NCBI GenBank assembly: GCA_964610305.1
Contig: CAZSVL010000005.1
Coordinates: 14,815 to 78,814, forward strand
DNA from: an uncultured Gammaproteobacteria bacterium
Lineage (GTDB): Bacteria; Patescibacteriota; Patescibacteriia; Magasanikbacterales; JBBTXJ01
DNA length: 64,000 nucleotides
Reading direction: 5' to 3'
The notes beneath the pieces were generated by a model. It made no database searches and was not told where the DNA came from. It saw nothing but the letters and a program-made list of their open reading frames with translations. The translations under genes and the position numbers were made by a program. Shown here piece after piece: positions 3,082-64,000 of this stretch (position 1 is the first letter of the stretch; each line of letters opens with the position of its first letter).

Positions 3082-4119
3082 CTACAAACCAATTTTTTTC
3101 CTGGCTTTTATCATGCTCTTCTCTGCAATAAAATGAGCCTTTCTGTTTGCCAGCTTTGAGAGTACGTCTCTTTTCAGCAGACCTGCACGTTTTTTTCTGA
3201 AGTTGCCAAAGTAATCTGAAATTGAGCGTGCTGTTGTTTGTTTGAGGTCTTTGTAAGAGATGGATTGGCCAGTAAAGCGCATGTTGTCTTTTTCTGAGCC
3301 AAAGTATTCTAGTAGTTTCAGCAGGTTGTACGCTCCAGCTACTCCTTCATTTTTTCCGGCTCCTGGTTTGAGAATCCATTCCCCTTTCCATGCTACAGGG
3401 ATTTTTCCGGTGCTCTCTGTTTTGGCTTTCTTAATTTTTTCTGCAATTGTTTTTGGAGAGTCGCTTAGATTGATGACGTTTTTTTCGCCATGAGATTTAC
3501 TCATTTTTTTATGAGGAGCGGTAAGGCTCATAACACGTGGGGTAGGGGTAAGGATGGGTCTGGCCTCTGGAAAGGTCTTTCCGTATCTATTGTTAAACCA
3601 GCGCGCAATTTTTCTAGTGAGCTCTACGTGTTGTACTTGGTCTTCTCCAACAGGCACGTGCGTCCCGCCGTAGAGTAGAATATCGGCCGCCTGCAAAACA
3701 GGGTAACTAAAGAGTCCATTATTAATATTATTTTTTTGATCTAATGACTTATCTTTAAATTGAGTCATCCGTGAGAGCTCTGCAATGGGCGTAACGCAAT
3801 TAAACATCCAGCCCAGCTCTGTGTGTTGAGGCACGGCCGATTGCAAAAAGAAAACAGACTTGCGATTGTTAATGCCAAGAGCAAAAAGCTCTGCTGCCAT
3901 CATTTTTACATTTTTTTTGAGCTCCTTGCTTTCAGGCGCTTGCGTCAGCACGTGCAAATCAGCAATAAAAAAGAAGCACTCGTTTTTTGGATCATCTTGC
4001 AATTGCTTCCAGTAGCGCAGCGCACCTAAATAATTTCCGATGTGAAGCGGTCCGCTTGGCTGAATGCCAGATACAATAGTGTGTTTCATAGTAGTCTTAT
4101 TGTAATCCCATATAGACAT
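3082..4119 (-). CDS. trpS: tryptophan--tRNA ligase
   Basis: Class I HIGH motif (PSGPLHIGNYLGA) and KMSKS (HKKMSKSHG). Overall TrpRS-like layout. True start may be the internal MKHTIVSG. Confidence 0.85.
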   Translation of the reverse strand: MSIWDYNKTTMKHTIVSGIQPSGPLHIGNYLGALRYWKQLQDDPKNECFFFIADLHVLTQAPESKELKKNVKMMAAELFALGINNRKSVFFLQSAVPQHTELGWMFNCVTPIAELSRMTQFKDKSLDQKNNINNGLFSYPVLQAADILLYGGTHVPVGEDQVQHVELTRKIARWFNNRYGKTFPEARPILTPTPRVMSLTAPHKKMSKSHGEKNVINLSDSPKTIAEKIKKAKTESTGKIPVAWKGEWILKPGAGKNEGVAGAYNLLKLLEYFGSEKDNMRFTGQSISYKDLKQTTARSISDYFGNFRKKRAGLLKRDVLSKLANRKAHFIAEKSMIKARKKIGL

Positions 4120-4224
4120 TTATGCAAAAAAATGCTATGGTGGTGCTACCGCGTCGGCCGGATGCCGGCATGTTCTGGATTCATGTGTGTTTGCTGTAGC
4201 GCAAAACGCTGCAGATTATCATGC

Positions 4225-20813: not shown

Positions 20814-21080
20814 ATGGCTTGCGTCTACATTTTAAGATCAGAAAGTGGAAGGTATTATGTGGGCAGTGCGATTGATGTTGATTCTCGTTTGAGACACCAT
20901 AAGGGCGGATTTACTCATTCAACTGCTCGCATGGGTAAGTTGGAGGTTGTGTTAGTGCAGCAGTATGAGACTCTGAAAGAAGCACGTTTCGTTGAAAGAA
21001 GGATAAAGAGAATGAAAAGGAAAGATTACATTGATAAGATGGTGGCCGACGGAAAAATCAAAATTAAGATGCGTGAGTAG
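20814..21080 (+). CDS. GIY-YIG nuclease family protein (about 88 aa), whose stop codon overlaps the tRNA 5' end
   Basis: VYILRSESGRYYVGSAIDVDSRLRHHKGG is a GIY-YIG motif. Track start at 20742 overlaps the pseudouridine synthase gene; ATG 20814 preferred. Final codons ATG CGT GAG TAG are the first 10 nt of the tRNA. Confidence 0.65.
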   Translation: MACVYILRSESGRYYVGSAIDVDSRLRHHKGGFTHSTARMGKLEVVLVQQYETLKEARFVERRIKRMKRKDYIDKMVADGKIKIKMRE

Positions 21081-21143
21081 CTCAACCGGCAGAGCGCGAA
21101 GCTTATACCTTCGTGGTTCCAGGTTCAAGTCCTGGCTCACGCA
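21071..21143 (+). tRNA. tRNA, anticodon UAU (Ile, AUA-decoding), 73 nt, no encoded CCA
   Basis: Manual cloverleaf: 7-bp acceptor stem GCGTGAG/CTCACGC, D-stem GCTC/GAGC, anticodon stem CGAAG/CTTCG with loop C-U-UAU-A-C, T-arm CCAGG-TTCAAGT-CCTGG, and 5-nt variable loop. All stems are Watson-Crick. Confidence 0.7.
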
Positions 21144-21195
21144 CGAGTAGCCCCGACGCCCGAAGGGGTCGGGGGGCCGACTGAAACGTCGGCCC

Positions 21196-21258
21196 TCAAC
21201 CGGCAGAGCGCGAAGCTTATACCTTCGTGGTTCCAGGTTCAAGTCCTGGCTCACGCAC
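21196..21258 (+). repeat. 63-bp perfect direct repeat of the tRNA 3' portion (D-loop to discriminator); partial pseudo-tRNA
   Basis: Identical to 21081-21143. It lacks the 5' acceptor strand and a D-stem partner. The 52-bp spacer holds two small GC hairpins. Confidence 0.8.
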
Positions 21259-59472: not shown

Positions 59473-61326
59473 ATGAAATACGTTAAATCTAACACAGAGG
59501 CTCTCCAGGAGAGGCACAAAAAAGTGTACGAGGATTTTTTTGCCCAGCAAGAGGTGGTGATATCTTCAGGCTTTTGTTATTCTATGGCTTCTGGTCTTTC
59601 TTGGCGTGTTGGTGCACCTGCGATTCACCACAAGCTTCCTTTTAAATGCTACGTTGGAATAAGTAGGGGCGAGGCGAAAGGTAAGATTACCGCAGGTAAG
59701 GTGCAGTATTTTTCTGCTCGGTTGAATCAATTTAGAGAGCCGGATTTTGATCCTGTAAGATGGGATGTTGGGATTCCAAGAGTGGAAAAACTTTTAAATA
59801 ATAAATTAGGAAAAGATTTTGACGGCTGTACGGTTTCTGTTTTGATGGAGAGATCAGAGGATAGAGGAATTGACACAGCACTTTCACAGACCATTATTGC
59901 TGCCATATATTTAAGGTATAAGTTGGCTACCGTAACTGAGATAAATAATTTTGCTCGGCTTTCTCACAAAGAGGTGGCGCAGAAGCAAACGCCAATTTCT
60001 AAGTTGTACAGGGAAATTCACACTGAAGGGCTGAAGATTTCTTCTGTTATCCAAATGGGTTCCGCAGCCGGTTCCTCTGGTTTTTCAAATCTTATGTATT
60101 CTGAATTTCCCACCGTACATGTAACTGAAGAGAGAGCCGGAAGTGTGAGGAAACCATATGGGGACCAATCCTACGAGCCTATTAATGTTCTTGACGATGT
60201 GCAGAGAGTAGAAAAAATGAAATGGTGGGGTTATAGGCTTAATGAGCTTTCAGATGTGCAGGGAGAGTTTCCCCTTGAGGTTGTGAGCATCTTTCCGGGA
60301 TCAGCGCGTATTTTATATTCTGCCTCTGCCTACACCTCTAGCGTGCTTTTACCTAGCTTTGATACGTTACGCGACGACATAAAAGAGATGTTTTCTGATA
60401 TAGATACCAATGATAACAAACGCATCCCTCCATTTTTAAAGTATGTAACTCAAGATGGTAAGTATTGGCAAGATTATGCAAGAGGACAAGTTTATTCTCG
60501 TCTGTATCTTTTGCGTGCTCTAGTAAATTTATACAAAAATAAGCTATCTTCAGCTACAACCGAGGATTTTTTGGAAGCCATAAAGTCAATGTTTGGGCTG
60601 AATGCGCCATTTGAAGAGACGCCGTCACGTAATATTCAAACCATTGTTCGAGCTCTTAGGCGTAAGGCAAATCAAAAAGGTATTCCTATTGCTGTTAGAT
60701 CTCACTTTTGGGGAAAGCAGGATGGAAACATTTTAGTATATTTTCCTCCGAAAAAATTTAGAGACGCAATAAATGAGGTGGTAGAAGACATGAAACAAGA
60801 AGTAGATTCTTCTATCCATATAGATTTTAGCTCTTGGCTTGATGGGTGGGGCACAGACGGTATCCGTGTAGAGCAATCCATATCAGACGGAGTATTTTCT
60901 GATTTTACCAACCAAAATGCAAAGCGCGTGATTCAATATGGGCCTAAGGGGATAAAGACAGATATTGTAGAGCGCGTCTCTCGCAGCAAATACGACATTC
61001 TTCTGAGTAAAATTGACGACAAGATATTTGTAGGTGGGCAGGAGTGTACCTCTAAGGATTTACCATCTCAAAAGGCAACCATAGAGATACTATCTGTTTT
61101 AATTGAAAAAGCGGGGATTGCTGTTTCAAATGCTGATTTGCCTAAAAATACTTACACATCATACAGAAATGAGCTTCAGGGCAAGATAATTACGCCCCTA
61201 TGTAAGCTGGTAGAGGATAGATTAGAAAAGAATTTGGCGCTTAAAATAGAGGGTAAATTAATGAATTTTGACGTAACTCTGGATTTGGGCAACCTTAAAA
61301 TTGGTGTTTTAGATAAGATTTCCTAA
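59473..61326 (+). CDS. large hypothetical protein (617 aa) with a possible GHMP-kinase-like glycine-rich motif
   Basis: MGSAAGSSGFS resembles the GHMP kinase PxGSGLGSSAA loop. Otherwise no recognised domains. Confidence 0.4.
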   Translation: MKYVKSNTEALQERHKKVYEDFFAQQEVVISSGFCYSMASGLSWRVGAPAIHHKLPFKCYVGISRGEAKGKITAGKVQYFSARLNQFREPDFDPVRWDVGIPRVEKLLNNKLGKDFDGCTVSVLMERSEDRGIDTALSQTIIAAIYLRYKLATVTEINNFARLSHKEVAQKQTPISKLYREIHTEGLKISSVIQMGSAAGSSGFSNLMYSEFPTVHVTEERAGSVRKPYGDQSYEPINVLDDVQRVEKMKWWGYRLNELSDVQGEFPLEVVSIFPGSARILYSASAYTSSVLLPSFDTLRDDIKEMFSDIDTNDNKRIPPFLKYVTQDGKYWQDYARGQVYSRLYLLRALVNLYKNKLSSATTEDFLEAIKSMFGLNAPFEETPSRNIQTIVRALRRKANQKGIPIAVRSHFWGKQDGNILVYFPPKKFRDAINEVVEDMKQEVDSSIHIDFSSWLDGWGTDGIRVEQSISDGVFSDFTNQNAKRVIQYGPKGIKTDIVERVSRSKYDILLSKIDDKIFVGGQECTSKDLPSQKATIEILSVLIEKAGIAVSNADLPKNTYTSYRNELQGKIITPLCKLVEDRLEKNLALKIEGKLMNFDVTLDLGNLKIGVLDKIS

Positions 61327-61346
61327 AAAGCAGACATAGACGAGGA

Positions 61347-61382
61347 TAAAATAATGGCTCAACAAAGCCATTATTTTGTTTC
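61347..61382 (+). terminator. intrinsic terminator AAAATAATGGCT-CAACAA-AGCCATTATTTT plus GTTTC
   Basis: 12-bp perfect stem, read directly. Confidence 0.5.
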
Positions 61383-61476
61383 TCAGATTTTTCAGTATTT
61401 TTCATTCTCAGATCCGTTAAGATAGTAACAAAGATCTGACGCGGTGTTGGATCAGGTTCCTTCAAGGAGTTCAGTT

Positions 61477-61584
61477 ATGTCGTGTGGTCTCGGTGGTCCC
61501 AACAGCAATCCGTTTGCCCCCAACCCCTACATCACGCCTCCCGCTATCCTGCCTGAGGATGCGCGGCGGATCCTGGGGCAGTAA
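61477..61584 (+). CDS. small ORF, 35 aa, MSCGLGGPNSNPFAPNPYITPPAILPEDARRILGQ
   Basis: AAGGAG SD 7 nt upstream of the ATG. Cys/Gly/Pro-rich. Below the 60-aa cutoff of the ORF track. Confidence 0.35.
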   Translation: MSCGLGGPNSNPFAPNPYITPPAILPEDARRILGQ

Positions 61585-61633
61585 GGGGCAGAGCGGAAAG
61601 GCTTATTGAGTGAGGGCGCAGAGTTCACTCTAG

Positions 61634-61698
61634 GGGATAGGCGTGCGTATCTATCCCCCTTTATACCAAAGCGGAAGTGGTCCGATTTGGTTAGAGGG
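61634..61698 (+). repeat. bipartite hairpin element copy 1 (hairpin A GGGGATAG/CTATCCCC, then CCCUUUAUACC...GGUUAGAGGG long hairpin)
   Basis: Shared with copies 2 and 3. The base of the second hairpin is conserved and the apical parts differ with compensating pairs. Confidence 0.6.
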
Positions 61699-61717
61699 TG
61701 CAAAACAGGAGAGAAAA

Positions 61718-61879
61718 ATGGCACTGGGAATTTTCTGCGCACTTGCTGCTGCCGCGGCCGGTGCGGCTGCAGCAGCTGCTGTAGATGAGGTAACCAGCGG
61801 GTGCGGATGTGGTCATGGGCGCTATGGCCCCACGTACTGTAGTGAACATGCGCCGCCTGATGATTATCCAACTGATTAA
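61718..61879 (+). CDS. small ORF, 53 aa, MALGIFCALAAAAAGAAAAAAVDEVTSGCGCGHGRYGPTYCSEHAPPDDYPTD
   Basis: AGGAGAG SD 6 nt upstream. Ala-rich hydrophobic N-terminus, then a Cys/Gly-rich acidic C-terminus. The track ORF 61643..61879 starts inside the hairpin element. Confidence 0.4.
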   Translation: MALGIFCALAAAAAGAAAAAAVDEVTSGCGCGHGRYGPTYCSEHAPPDDYPTD

Positions 61880-61916
61880 CATGAGGCAAGTATTTACCCC
61901 AAAAGAGGAGGGTGTT

Positions 61917-62027
61917 ATGGATTGTGGTGGATGCATTCCGGGGCCGTATACCGGCTCGTCTGATCATTTGTTGAATGATGATTTGTGCACAAATGAGCTT
62001 ATGGTGGGTACCAGTGTATTATCCTGA
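61917..62027 (+). CDS. small ORF, 36 aa, MDCGGCIPGPYTGSSDHLLNDDLCTNELMVGTSVLS
   Basis: AAGAGGAGGG SD 4 nt upstream. CGGC...P motif similar to the 61477 peptide. Confidence 0.4.
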   Translation: MDCGGCIPGPYTGSSDHLLNDDLCTNELMVGTSVLS

Positions 62028-62131
62028 GCCTACTAGTAATTGCCATTTCTGTGGGACATCTCATGACTCTAGGAGTACGTGTCCCACGATTCCGCGCTGC
62101 TTGGGAGTGATGAGTGGTTGGGAGAATCCTA

Positions 62132-62230
62132 ATGTGTGATCCGATTACCTTGTTGGTTCTCGCTGGCGCTGCAGCGATCGCGACGTCCGCCGCACTTTCG
62201 TCATCGGATGATGATGACTGTCACAATTGA
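62132..62230 (+). CDS. small ORF, 32 aa, MCDPITLLVLAGAAAIATSAALSSSDDDDCHN
   Basis: GGGAGAA SD upstream. Ala-rich hydrophobic stretch then SSDDDDCHN. Preceded by GTGGGACA...TGTCCCAC hairpin. Confidence 0.35.
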   Translation: MCDPITLLVLAGAAAIATSAALSSSDDDDCHN

Positions 62231-62236
62231 GTAGCT

Positions 62237-62296
62237 GGAGGACAATGTGTCCTCCCCTTTATACCTCATCAGAGCGGTTCTGATGAGGTTAGAGGG
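62237..62296 (+). repeat. bipartite hairpin element copy 2 (GGAGGACA-AUG-UGUCCUCC, then CCCUUUAUACCUCAUCAGA-gcggu-UCUGAUGAGGUUAGAGGG)
   Basis: Starts 6 nt after the stop of the 62132 ORF. Confidence 0.6.
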
Positions 62297-62314
62297 CAGC
62301 ACAAGGAGTTTGCC

Positions 62315-62422
62315 ATGCGTTCAGACATTGATGTGATCTTGGACAACACTTCCCCTACGCGGATTCACCGCGACAACATGGGTCAGATTGTGCGGATTGG
62401 TCCACCGATCCTGCGACCTTAG
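62315..62422 (+). CDS. small ORF, 35 aa, MRSDIDVILDNTSPTRIHRDNMGQIVRIGPPILRP
   Basis: AAGGAG SD 7 nt upstream. Confidence 0.35.
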   Translation: MRSDIDVILDNTSPTRIHRDNMGQIVRIGPPILRP

Positions 62423-62437
62423 CCGTAGTTCATACTT

Positions 62438-62499
62438 GGAGGATACGCTTGTATCCTCCCCTTTATACCGCACCAGAGATTTCTGGTTCGGTTAGAGGA
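62438..62499 (+). repeat. bipartite hairpin element copy 3 (GGAGGAUAC-gcuu-GUAUCCUCC, then CCCUUUAUACCGCACCAGA-gauu-UCUGGUUCGGUUAGAGGA)
   Basis: Starts 16 nt after the stop of the 62315 ORF. Followed by further hairpins and a T7 run at 62565-62571. Confidence 0.6.
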
Positions 62500-62632
62500 T
62501 AACGCAATTAAGATACGCGAAGCTACGCAATTGCATATGGCGCGCGTGCAAGGAATTGCATACGTTTTTTTCGCTAGCATGCAGGGTAACCGTATTGCCG
62601 GCTCCAGACAGGTTTTTGGTAAAATTTAGCAA

Positions 62633-62654
62633 CAGCCGCCTTTGGCGGTTTTTG
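62633..62654 (+). terminator. short hairpin GCCGCC-UUUG-GCGG plus U5
   Basis: Read directly. Weak. Confidence 0.3.
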
Positions 62655-62658
62655 CACT

Positions 62659-62832
62659 ATGTACACAAGACTCAAATGCATAAAATGCAATGCAGACGCG
62701 CGTGGCTATGAATGTGCCATGTGCGGCCTTATCATGTATGCGTTTGATGCATTCCATGAGTGTGGTAGTGGTCAAGTACTTCCGCGCTGCGGCGGATGTT
62801 TGACAAATGAGGTGGAATGCGATTGTATATAA
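62659..62832 (+). CDS. small Cys-rich ORF, 57 aa (CxxC x3 plus CxC), zinc-ribbon-like
   Basis: MYTRLKCIKCNADARGYECAMCGLIMYAFDAFHECGSGQVLPRCGGCLTNEVECDCI. No obvious SD. Confidence 0.3.
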   Translation: MYTRLKCIKCNADARGYECAMCGLIMYAFDAFHECGSGQVLPRCGGCLTNEVECDCI

Positions 62833-62855
62833 AAAAGAAAAGAGAGGAGGAAAGG

Positions 62856-63482
62856 ATGAAAAGTGTAATCTTGTTTGACGTGGGTGGAGTGATAGATGGT
62901 GGTGGTGCGGTTTCGGGTAATCAAACTACGCCAGCTCTTTTTTCTGAGAGGTTCGGTGTTGATCCGCAGGCTTTTATTCTAGCTCGTAGGAAAGCATGGC
63001 GTCCTTTAAAACTCGGGAAGATTTCTGTAGTAGATTTTTGGACCTCCATTTTCAACGAGTTGGAAATTCCGGTTGATATCGCCGCAGCAATGGAAGTGTA
63101 TGAGGGTACGATAAGCGCGGTTCCTGGAATGCTGGATCTTGTGTCAGAATTGAATGACGGGGGCTATACTCTGGCGCTAGCCAACAATGAGGGTCGCGAG
63201 TTTGATGATTTGCGTGAAAGTAAGTTCGATTATTTTCGGTTATTCAAACACCGTTTTCCTTCCTGGAAGTTAGGTCTGGGCAAGCCCGACCCTGCTTATT
63301 TCCAGGAAGTGTTGAAACGTGGTAATTGGAGTCCGCAGCAATGCATTTTTGTGGATGATAAAATGATTAACGTGCAAGCCTCAATAAAGGAAGGCATTAC
63401 AGGAATTCATTGTGAAGCAAACGCAAGGATTCTTCGCTCAGCTCTTATCAGCTTGGGTGTTAAACTATTCAATCAGGCTTAA
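62856..63482 (+). CDS. HAD-superfamily hydrolase (subfamily IA-like)
   Basis: Motif I LFDVGGVI, GKPDP, and FVDD. AGAGGAGGAAAGG SD. Track start 62817. Confidence 0.65.
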   Translation: MKSVILFDVGGVIDGGGAVSGNQTTPALFSERFGVDPQAFILARRKAWRPLKLGKISVVDFWTSIFNELEIPVDIAAAMEVYEGTISAVPGMLDLVSELNDGGYTLALANNEGREFDDLRESKFDYFRLFKHRFPSWKLGLGKPDPAYFQEVLKRGNWSPQQCIFVDDKMINVQASIKEGITGIHCEANARILRSALISLGVKLFNQA

Positions 63483-63518
63483 TGCACCCGTCTGAGGAAC
63501 ACTCGCAAGGAGGATGAT

Positions 63519-64000
63519 ATGAAAAAGCTTGACTTTCTGGCATTCGTATCTGCAATGCGCGGCCCCTTGTATCAGTGTGGGCAGATTGCACTGAAGTTAA
63601 AGGGTAAGACGGTCAAGAGGGATAAAGCTCCTGATTCGTCCGTCCAGCTAAGCACGGCTGTAGGTGATGTAGATGAGTTGTGTCAGGAAATAATTCTAAT
63701 GCGCGCAGCAGAGGTTACGCCGTGGATTGAGATTCGTTCTGAGGAACAGAATGTTTGTCCTAAGGCAATCCGAGAGTTGTTTGAAAAAAACAGCTCCCGG
63801 TTTACACTAGTAATTGACCCACTTGACGGGACTGATGAATTTTTTAGAGCTGGGAATGAGTTTGGTCATATGGTTGGAATCCATGACAAACAAAGCGGTC
63901 GTATGAGCTGTGGAATGATATTTATTCCTGAAGAACAAGTGTTGTATTTCGCAATCCGTGGTATGGGTGCGTTTACGGCTTCTGGGTTGTTTGGTGAAGT
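63519..64000 (+). CDS. inositol monophosphatase / CysQ-family phosphatase, 3'-truncated at window edge
   Basis: VIDPLDGTDEF is the IMPase-family metal-binding signature. AAGGAGG SD. No stop before position 64000. Confidence 0.55.
   Translation, partial: MKKLDFLAFVSAMRGPLYQCGQIALKLKGKTVKRDKAPDSSVQLSTAVGDVDELCQEIILMRAAEVTPWIEIRSEEQNVCPKAIRELFEKNSSRFTLVIDPLDGTDEFFRAGNEFGHMVGIHDKQSGRMSCGMIFIPEEQVLYFAIRGMGAFTASGLFGE

Follow-up and report, generated by a model that had tools for sequence, protein, structure and literature searches.

What are the hairpins that recur between very small open reading frames (ORFs) in a 1.2-kb GC-rich islet of contig CAZSVL010000005.1, and do they act as DNA or as RNA? 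The islet is placed between the gene of a 617-aa protein (59473-61326) and a gene for a HAD hydrolase (62856-63482); positions are those of the window, that is, the whole 64,000-nt stretch that was analysed. A first-pass annotation made from the letters alone had suggested an integron-like cassette array or, as an alternative, a novel peptide/RNA system. The compositional part of that description was borne out when windowed GC was computed, with 52.9% GC at 61440-62500 against 43.9% for the whole window, and a peak of 0.57 over 300-nt windows in the islet against 0.34-0.42 immediately upstream. As to its nature, the islet is very probably not an integron cassette array. It is a genuine and unannotated feature, probably an operon of micro-protein genes set apart by a structured RNA element that has no counterpart in Rfam. 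Our preferred explanation, to which we give a rough probability of 0.42, is that this element acts in cis to punctuate a polycistronic micro-protein mRNA, through recognition by a specific factor and the processing or stabilisation of the transcript.

The element can be retrieved with the pattern CCTTTATACC-N(10-40)-GGTTAGAGG, which occurs exactly three times in the 64 kb, always in the islet and always on the + strand, and which was found in none of 100 shuffles. Four more copies are present at the corresponding locus of an ENA metagenome contig (L034), and a covariance model, R1, was built from all seven (three of the window, four of L034), which score 51-73 bits with it. Where the two sets have to be told apart, copies are prefixed W_ for the window and R_ for L034. 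The window copies are as follows.

61633-61698, + strand: copy E1, with hairpin P1 at 61633-61658 and hairpin P2 at 61659-61698; fold z-score -2.6; 69.8 bits
62237-62296, + strand: copy E2; fold -40.7 kcal/mol, z-score -6.1; 72.8 bits
62438-62498, + strand: copy E3, the last copy, before a conserved non-coding tail; fold z-score -7.3; 69.7 bits

Each copy consists of a short variable hairpin (P1) abutting a long hairpin (P2), with a spacer of 0-1 nt between them. The base of P2 is conserved (CCCUUUA-U-ACC pairing with GGU-UAGAGGG, with one bulged U), its apex of ~20-24 nt is variable, and the whole forms a continuous helix of 17-18 bp within 39-44 nt. Across the seven copies 88.9% of the cells are standard pairs, and 6 of the 18 pairs have substitutions in both partners. 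Covariation scored 0.384 (0.202 +/- 0.034 for shuffled alignments), which 0/500 shuffles reached; when the pairing partners were slid by 1-3 columns as a control, pairing fell to 33-58%. The repeated element, its bulged U and the compensatory changes of its apex, which had been described from the three window copies, are therefore confirmed. Hairpin P1 is unlike in sequence in every copy, yet in each it is a stem of 7-10 pairs; its 5' arm is rich in purines and resembles a Shine-Dalgarno (SD) sequence (GGAGGA, GGAAGA, GGCGGAG), and its 3' arm is rich in pyrimidines. A conserved third helix (P0), which would make a three-way junction with P1 and P2, and loop-loop pairing were both considered and rejected, neither being conserved in the folds as judged by eye.

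The element is confined to this locus. Applied to 86 kb in all, model R1 found no copy beyond the seven, either in the remaining 62 kb of the window or in 20 kb of L034; the next match, at 32 bits, was the reverse strand of E2, and all others scored below 18 bits. The exact core pattern gave 1 match in a viral, 12 in a genome and 19 in a metagenome collection, and a relaxed pattern gave 29 in viral contigs. These matches were rejected as true copies and are regarded as chance, lying inside coding sequence or lacking the hairpin and scoring at most 17.6 bits with R1. From the model and pattern searches together, the element is real, rare and locus-specific rather than a dispersed repeat, and the possibility raised earlier of a generic palindromic repeat scattered over the genome finds no copies outside the islets in the 86 kb. 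The Rfam check proposed at the same time was made with Rfam 15 and returned no match over 60500-64000 even at E<=10; with gathering scores applied to the full window and to L034, tRNA alone was returned. One of the L034 copies, R_Ea (L034 12206-12274), is a degenerate variant (CUUUAUCC / GGUUGAG, 51.6 bits). It is without the A-U pair beside the bulge, from which it follows either that the basal helix tolerates change or that this copy is decaying.

The sense strand of the element is more stable than the antisense strand by 3-12.5 kcal/mol in all seven copies, because of 16 G·U pairs, in place of which the bottom strand has A·C mismatches. These include the U·G pair of the conserved base, kept in most copies. 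This bias points to a function as sense RNA, in which P1 and P2 together have a predicted energy of -26 to -37 kcal/mol. The placement of the element relative to translation signals is also regular. Hairpin P1 begins 6, 15 and 48 nt past the stop codon in the three window copies, and 7, 10, 7 and 6 nt past it in those of L034, so that a stable stem-loop stands at the 3' end of a cistron, 6-15 nt past its stop codon, in six of the seven copies. Where a window copy is followed by an ORF, as two of the three are, 6-8 nt separate the end of P2 from the SD of that ORF. The element had been described as coming after three of the ORFs, and it does recur there; it is better described, however, as lying between cistrons, with P2 6-8 nt ahead of an SD. 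The last copy of each genome (W_E3 and R_Ed) is followed by no ORF or SD, the tail being found there instead, and is equally well conserved. No copy has a U-run after P2 and a terminator scan found none, so the element is not an intrinsic terminator.

The islet had been reported to hold six or more tiny ORFs on one strand, and seven of 32-57 aa were found, all on the + strand. Five of these have an SD of AGGAG/GAGG type 5-8 nt ahead of the ATG.

61477-61584, + strand: ORF1, 35 aa, Pro-rich, MSCGLGGPNSNPFAPNPYITPPA..., with an AAGGAG SD
61718-61879, + strand: ORF2, 53 aa, Ala-rich hydrophobic N-terminus and acidic Cys-rich tail, with an AGGAG SD 8 nt past P2
61917-62027, + strand: ORF3, 36 aa, MDCGGCIPGP..., with a strong GAGGAGG SD
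61993-62139, + strand: ORF4, ~48 aa, rich in Cys and Pro, overlaps ORF3 at the end of the latter; lacks an SD and has an uncertain start
62132-62230, + strand: ORF5, 32 aa, MCDPITLLVLAGAAAIATSA...DDDDCHN
62315-62422, + strand: ORF6, 35 aa, MRSDIDVILDNTSPTRIHRDNMGQIVRIGPPILRP
62659-62832, + strand: ORF7, 57 aa, zinc-ribbon-like, with 9 Cys and four CxxC/CxC pairs; lacks an SD

Conservation of these ORFs in a related genome, the lack of which the first-pass annotation had named among the grounds for refutation, was looked at in L034 and proved partial. ORF6 has an orthologue there that is 82% identical, with 15 synonymous and 7 non-synonymous codon differences and nucleotide differences of 5/4/21 by codon position (21/30 at the third), and the orthologue of ORF7 is 73% identical, with differences of 13/10/31. 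At least these two, judged from their substitution patterns, are under purifying selection and are real coding genes. ORF6, the best conserved of the small genes, is uncalled in both contigs. The gene calls in an identical short Logan contig include ORF2 and ORF5, the two that had been noted for sharing an Ala-rich N-terminus and an acidic, Cys-containing tail. Both are homologous to the L034 peptide Rh (ORF2 45% identical over 44 aa, E=0.001; ORF5 59% over 22 aa, E=1e-8), while ORF1 resembles the Pro-rich peptide Rf (46% over 28 aa, E=0.001). ORF4 shows a weak likeness to Rg (E=0.69) and is the least certain ORF, and no homologue of ORF3 was found in the peptide comparison with L034. Four peptide families are common to the two genomes, the other ORFs being lineage-specific.

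The seven peptides gave nothing significant against Pfam, NCBIfam and PADLOC and no match in the PDB or in phage records; ORF7 in particular matched no family or PDB entry, and a tblastn search of phages with ORF6 and ORF7 returned nothing. The suggestion that they might be precursors of ribosomally synthesised and post-translationally modified peptides (RiPPs) gained no support: the neighbours include nothing that resembles a maturase, and those of the window and L034 gave no match to any RiPP enzyme family, in agreement with the earlier statement that the window holds no recognisable modification enzyme. With ORFs that are partly conserved and under selection, and an element that is covarying, locus-specific and outside any Rfam family, it was the alternative of a novel peptide/RNA system that found support. 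The high GC of the islet is explained in part by peptide composition, Pro, Gly, Ala and Cys raising GC at the second codon position (0.54 in the small ORFs vs 0.36 in reference genes; 0.52 vs 0.40 at the third position). A 146-aa antisense ORF (61527-61967, - strand, over E1 and ORF2) was rejected as a probable by-product of high GC, with no L034 counterpart of similar extent.

Two genomes were compared in this work, the window and L034, plus the Logan contig mentioned above; exact-sequence look-ups with the HAD hydrolase, ThiI and ORF7 had that one identical 4.9-kb contig as their sole match. L034 encodes a 623-aa homologue, 64% identical to the 617-aa neighbour, and shares with the window the gene order ABC transporter, PGI, ThiI (on the opposite strand) and then the 623-aa or 617-aa gene. 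Its islet lies directly downstream of the 623-aa gene, with a GC of 51.5% vs 45.7%, the four copies of the element and at least eight small ORFs, and differs from that of the window in gene content and order. The locus is thus syntenic and GC-rich in both genomes, which argues that it is long resident and not mobile. Recent horizontal transfer was accordingly rejected as the cause of the high GC, the syntenic L034 locus being GC-rich too and the second-position GC driven by composition.

The array is bracketed by non-coding DNA that is better conserved than the genes around it. Identity with L034 is 89% over 61345-61436 (BLAST) and averages 89% per column over ~62495-62665 (alignment), compared with 72-77% for the coding DNA, and from these flanks we infer a single transcription unit. 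The features of the flanks are listed below.

61348-61377, + strand: terminator-like hairpin of the 617-aa gene, AAAATAATGGCT...AGCCATTATTTT, a 12-bp perfect inverted repeat (-20.2 kcal/mol, z-score -8.3; kept in L034)
61374-61432, + strand: promoter-like region, near-invariant against L034, with direct repeats TTTTGTTTCTCAGAT / TTTTCATTCTCAGAT 25 nt apart at 61374-61413
61433-61453, + strand: small hairpin of the 5' untranslated region (UTR) before ORF1, GAUCUG...UUGGAUC, predicted in both genomes
62499-62658, + strand: non-coding tail of ~160 nt, conserved in L034

A promoter function of 61374-61432 is suggested by its conservation and position; a sigma-70 consensus scan found no + strand promoter in it. 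In the 5'-UTR hairpin, U·G is replaced by C-G and G·U by A-U between the genomes; the hairpin is statistically weak (z-scores -0.5 and -1.7). The tail is predicted to fold into several hairpins and has no Rfam match. It includes a weak hairpin followed by U7 (62527-62571), an extended -10-like sequence, TGGTAAAAT (62617-62625), and at its end (62634-62654) a strong terminator-like hairpin, GCCGCC-UUU-GGCGG followed by U5, with the fold of 62628-62662 at -16.1 kcal/mol (z-score -3.5). ORF7 starts 5 nt beyond this hairpin. The tail could be a 3'-UTR-derived small RNA or an attenuator.

Taken as cis-acting punctuation, the element would work as follows. One transcription unit would encode very small proteins of 32-53 aa, rich in Pro, Gly, Ala and Cys, two of them with an N-terminus resembling a membrane helix. 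The P1|P2 junction and the basal helix would be the recognition site of a sequence-specific endoribonuclease or RNA-binding protein. After a cut there or close by, the upstream segment would end in P1 as a 3' cap and the downstream segment would begin with P2 as a 5' hairpin, and these hairpins might protect against 3' and 5' exonucleases, given that the organism has RNase J, the gene of which is present in the window. Each micro-protein segment would thereby gain a half-life and a translation rate of its own. The sense structure, the fixed register with stop codons and SDs and the restriction to one operon fit a cis-acting RNA signal, as does the basal helix, conserved in sequence and carrying a bulged U, a classical feature of protein recognition that would imply a dedicated recognition factor. 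The distribution of P1 and P2 between the two genomes (described below), in which P1 goes with the gene before it and P2 with the sequence after it, fits the same model.

Two known systems resemble such an arrangement. As in segmental RNA processing and stabilisation (SRPS), stable stem-loops stand closely past stop codons within a polycistronic unit. In SRPS the stem-loops go together with sites of processing and determine how abundant the cistron segments are relative to one another, and they co-evolve with the upstream gene, as P1 appears to do here. Unlike the generic stem-loops of SRPS, in which the sequence is not conserved, the present element has a core of 10-12 nt and a bulged U that are conserved between copies and between genomes, a U·G pair retained in most of the copies, and a second hairpin that abuts the first, and it is known from sequence alone. 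In the early genes of phage T7, RNase III signals are repeated imperfect hairpins at the cistron boundaries of one long transcript; an internal loop lies at the cleavage site and the 3' hairpin left behind stabilises the upstream mRNA. The likeness is in the repetition of related imperfect hairpins at cistron boundaries. The element differs in having a single bulged U in a continuous helix and a separate upstream hairpin, and in belonging to a cellular host genome, no similar DNA having been found in phage records.

Several points weigh against this explanation. Processing is something that we infer throughout. The conservation lies inside a helix and so on both strands, and a function at the level of DNA would give the same pattern. 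Generic stabilising stem-loops need no conserved sequence, so that the conserved core obliges us to postulate a specific factor. The covariation significance (0/500 shuffles) is overstated because the seven copies come from two genomes and are related by descent. The sigma-70 consensus is absent from the + strand in the promoter scan, E1 folds modestly better than its shuffles (z-score -2.6), and R_Ea, at 51.6 bits, is degenerate.

The main rival to processing and stabilisation is a translational operator, in which the basal helix and bulged U would be bound by a repressor or activator that controls the SD downstream with no cleavage. We regard it as the less probable of the two by a clear step, and unlikely in itself. 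Its appeal lies in how close P2 comes to the following SD (6-8 nt) where a window copy precedes an ORF, as two of them do, and in the conserved Cys-rich 57-aa protein that adjoins the array in both genomes; this zinc-ribbon-like protein, or one of the micro-proteins, would be the candidate binder; against this rival, no RNA-binding domain was detected in any neighbour. A variant would have terminating ribosomes melt P1 and free its CCUCC-like 3' arm, coupling or uncoupling the neighbouring cistrons. The position of P1 inside the footprint of a terminating ribosome and the SD-like purine-rich 5' and pyrimidine-rich 3' arms of P1 also speak for this rival. Control of a downstream SD sits poorly with W_E3 and R_Ed, which precede no ORF or SD and yet are equally conserved.

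A further rival sees the elements as sites of DNA recombination in a cassette array, either integron-like, which was one of the two readings first suggested, or of a new kind, with the core as crossover point; we consider it a long shot. The hallmarks of an attC site are the R'' (RYYYAAC) and R' (GTTRRRY) boxes with conserved AAC/GTT triplets, L boxes, an unpaired central spacer, extrahelical bases and a variable terminal structure of 20-100 nt, and the substrate of recombination is the folded bottom strand (PMC4889954). In common with attC sites, and with attC clusters that have no integrase (CALIN), the element is an imperfect palindrome, variable at the apex and conserved in its outer arms, that is placed after promoter-poor ORFs and has a 3' arm containing GTT, and its modules vary in content and order between genomes (PMC4889954). 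It differs from them in lacking the AAC triplet, the L boxes, the central spacer and the typical length, in folding better on the opposite strand, in the absence of any integrase found and in a putative exchange point within the 5' core (PMC4889954). In detail, the AAC triplet of the R'' box is missing in all seven copies, the 5' arm reading CUUUAUACC / CCUUUAUACC or UC-/UCC/UUCC variants. Hairpin P2, of only 39-44 nt, has no L box or unpaired central spacer, with one bulged U only, and the bottom strand folds worse in seven of the seven copies. The resemblance of the GTTAGAG core to an R' box holds in so far as this core is present at the 3' end; its seventh base, however, is G and not Y, and in R_Ec the GTT is lost and replaced by GCT (GGCTAGAGG). 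No integrase had been noticed in the window, and this was upheld: no Phage_integrase domain was found by Pfam in 46 window ORFs, with about nine ORFs of at least 100 aa outside the scan, and none is listed among the precomputed Pfam matches within 10 kb on either side of the L034 locus. An attC or CALIN array is not supported on these grounds.

Recombination is favoured by the general layout of ORFs followed by an imperfect palindrome, by the order of the modules and by the mosaic relationship of the copies. The block of several ORFs of which the MCDPI gene is the last stands ahead of the MRSDID gene in the window and behind it in L034. The P1 of W_E3 is nearest to that of R_Ec (both after the MRSDID gene, 77-82%), and its P2 apex is nearest to that of R_Ed (both before the tail, 75%); the P1 of W_E2 is nearest to that of R_Ed (both after the MCDPI gene, 74%). 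Five of the six P1/P2 affinities fit a single event of excision and reinsertion. As far as can be read from the aligned copies, the exchange points probably lie in the conserved 5' core between P1 and the P2 apex and not at the 3' GTT, and deletion, gene conversion or reinsertion through the identical cores of 10-12 nt would explain the mosaics equally; nothing positive speaks for a dedicated recombination system. The long residence of the locus, syntenic and GC-rich in both genomes, also speaks against an array of mobile cassettes. There is an outside chance of a dual role, in which the element would serve as RNA punctuation while its DNA core was the crossover of a shuffling process, integrase-independent or by an unknown recombinase, that diversifies the micro-proteins under control of the GHMP-fold/winged-helix protein encoded upstream.

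A selfish or neutral repeat with no role in expression of the small ORFs, such as a miniature palindrome or a relative of repetitive extragenic palindromes and bacterial interspersed mosaic elements (REP/BIME), is still less probable. The element is a palindrome with conserved ends, seen in two genomes, and shares with REP/BIME the form of a short GC-rich intergenic palindrome; REP/BIME sequences lie between convergent or co-directional genes and can stabilise upstream mRNA. They are, however, dispersed genome-wide in both orientations, whereas the element occurs in one operon, in one orientation and in register with translation signals. It has no copies elsewhere in the 62 kb of the window and 20 kb of L034 and, by the exact core pattern, no true copy in the three public collections, shows the G·U bias of the sense strand, and is kept at the same locus across ~36% protein divergence. 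A ligand-sensing, riboswitch-like leader repeated before several cistrons, to which a structured and conserved RNA closely upstream of SDs might point, is scarcely credible, because the conserved nucleotides of P2 are all paired in one helix while loops and junction vary in sequence and length and so offer no conserved ligand pocket, no alternative terminator, anti-SD fold or U-tract was found, Rfam gave no match at E<=10, and the last copy precedes no gene.

The large gene next to the islet may bear on how the operon is controlled.

59473-61326, + strand: gene of the 617-aa protein, adjacent to the islet in both genomes

The protein itself has no Pfam match and nothing significant in NCBIfam or PADLOC. 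A profile of 96 homologues, however, matches mevalonate kinases in the PDB (E=1.8e-9), and among 49 family members 15 match GHMP_kinases_N and one matches an OmpR-type Trans_reg_C domain at its C-terminus. The family comprises 631 clusters at 50% identity, with members of roughly 600 aa; a word-indexed homologue search reached only three of these clusters, even with the 96-sequence profile. An AF2 model of the 617-aa protein, made from a three-sequence alignment, was poor (pLDDT 43.5) and a Foldseek search with it uninformative. On the profile evidence the protein is predicted to combine a degenerate GHMP-kinase fold with a C-terminal domain resembling an OmpR/PhoB-type winged helix, and its glycine-rich ATP motif looks degenerate in the alignment. 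As a putative ligand-sensing GHMP fold joined to a winged helix it is possibly a regulator of the operon, and the direct repeats TTTTGTTTCTCAGAT / TTTTCATTCTCAGAT are candidate sites for its winged-helix domain, through which, under the punctuation model, it might switch the operon at the promoter. A third homologue, 39% identical to the 617-aa protein, is encoded on a JGI contig (that of P0003, sample 3300072015). On that contig the gene of the homologue is followed by 930 nt without called genes (positions 3259-4193), small genes of 105 and 118 aa and then a 616-aa gene, and this region is possibly a third islet.

If punctuation by processing and stabilisation is the correct account, the element would be an undescribed RNA motif with a dedicated recognition factor implied, and would organise the expression of fast-evolving micro-proteins whose genes are largely missed by standard annotation. 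An uncultured lineage would also provide, in this element, a concrete case of mRNA punctuated by sequence-specific signals. The distribution is so far narrow, at two genomes, and the function of the element a presumed one; the covariance model and the family of 631 regulator clusters provide a handle for finding similar hidden micro-protein operons. For screens of integrons and CALIN, the locus is a caution that an attC-like layout can arise from constraints at the level of RNA.

No phage or plasmid record matched the islet by BLAST. The gene content of the window is that of an uncultured bacterium with a small genome, which is probably host-dependent; near the islet are the GHMP-fold/winged helix-turn-helix protein, ThiI, the HAD hydrolase and an inositol monophosphatase, and QueA in L034. 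Further away, a tRNA-Ile(TAT) lies at 21071-21144, and a second, weak tRNA-like match at 21186-21257 (30.5 bits with Rfam, barely over the gathering score) was not called by ARAGORN. Beyond these, a polysaccharide cluster occupies one strand of 22021-43574, with genes for a Wzm/Wzt ABC exporter, for NeuB and for DegT aminotransferases, as well as a C-methyltransferase, an N-formyltransferase, epimerases and glycosyltransferases.

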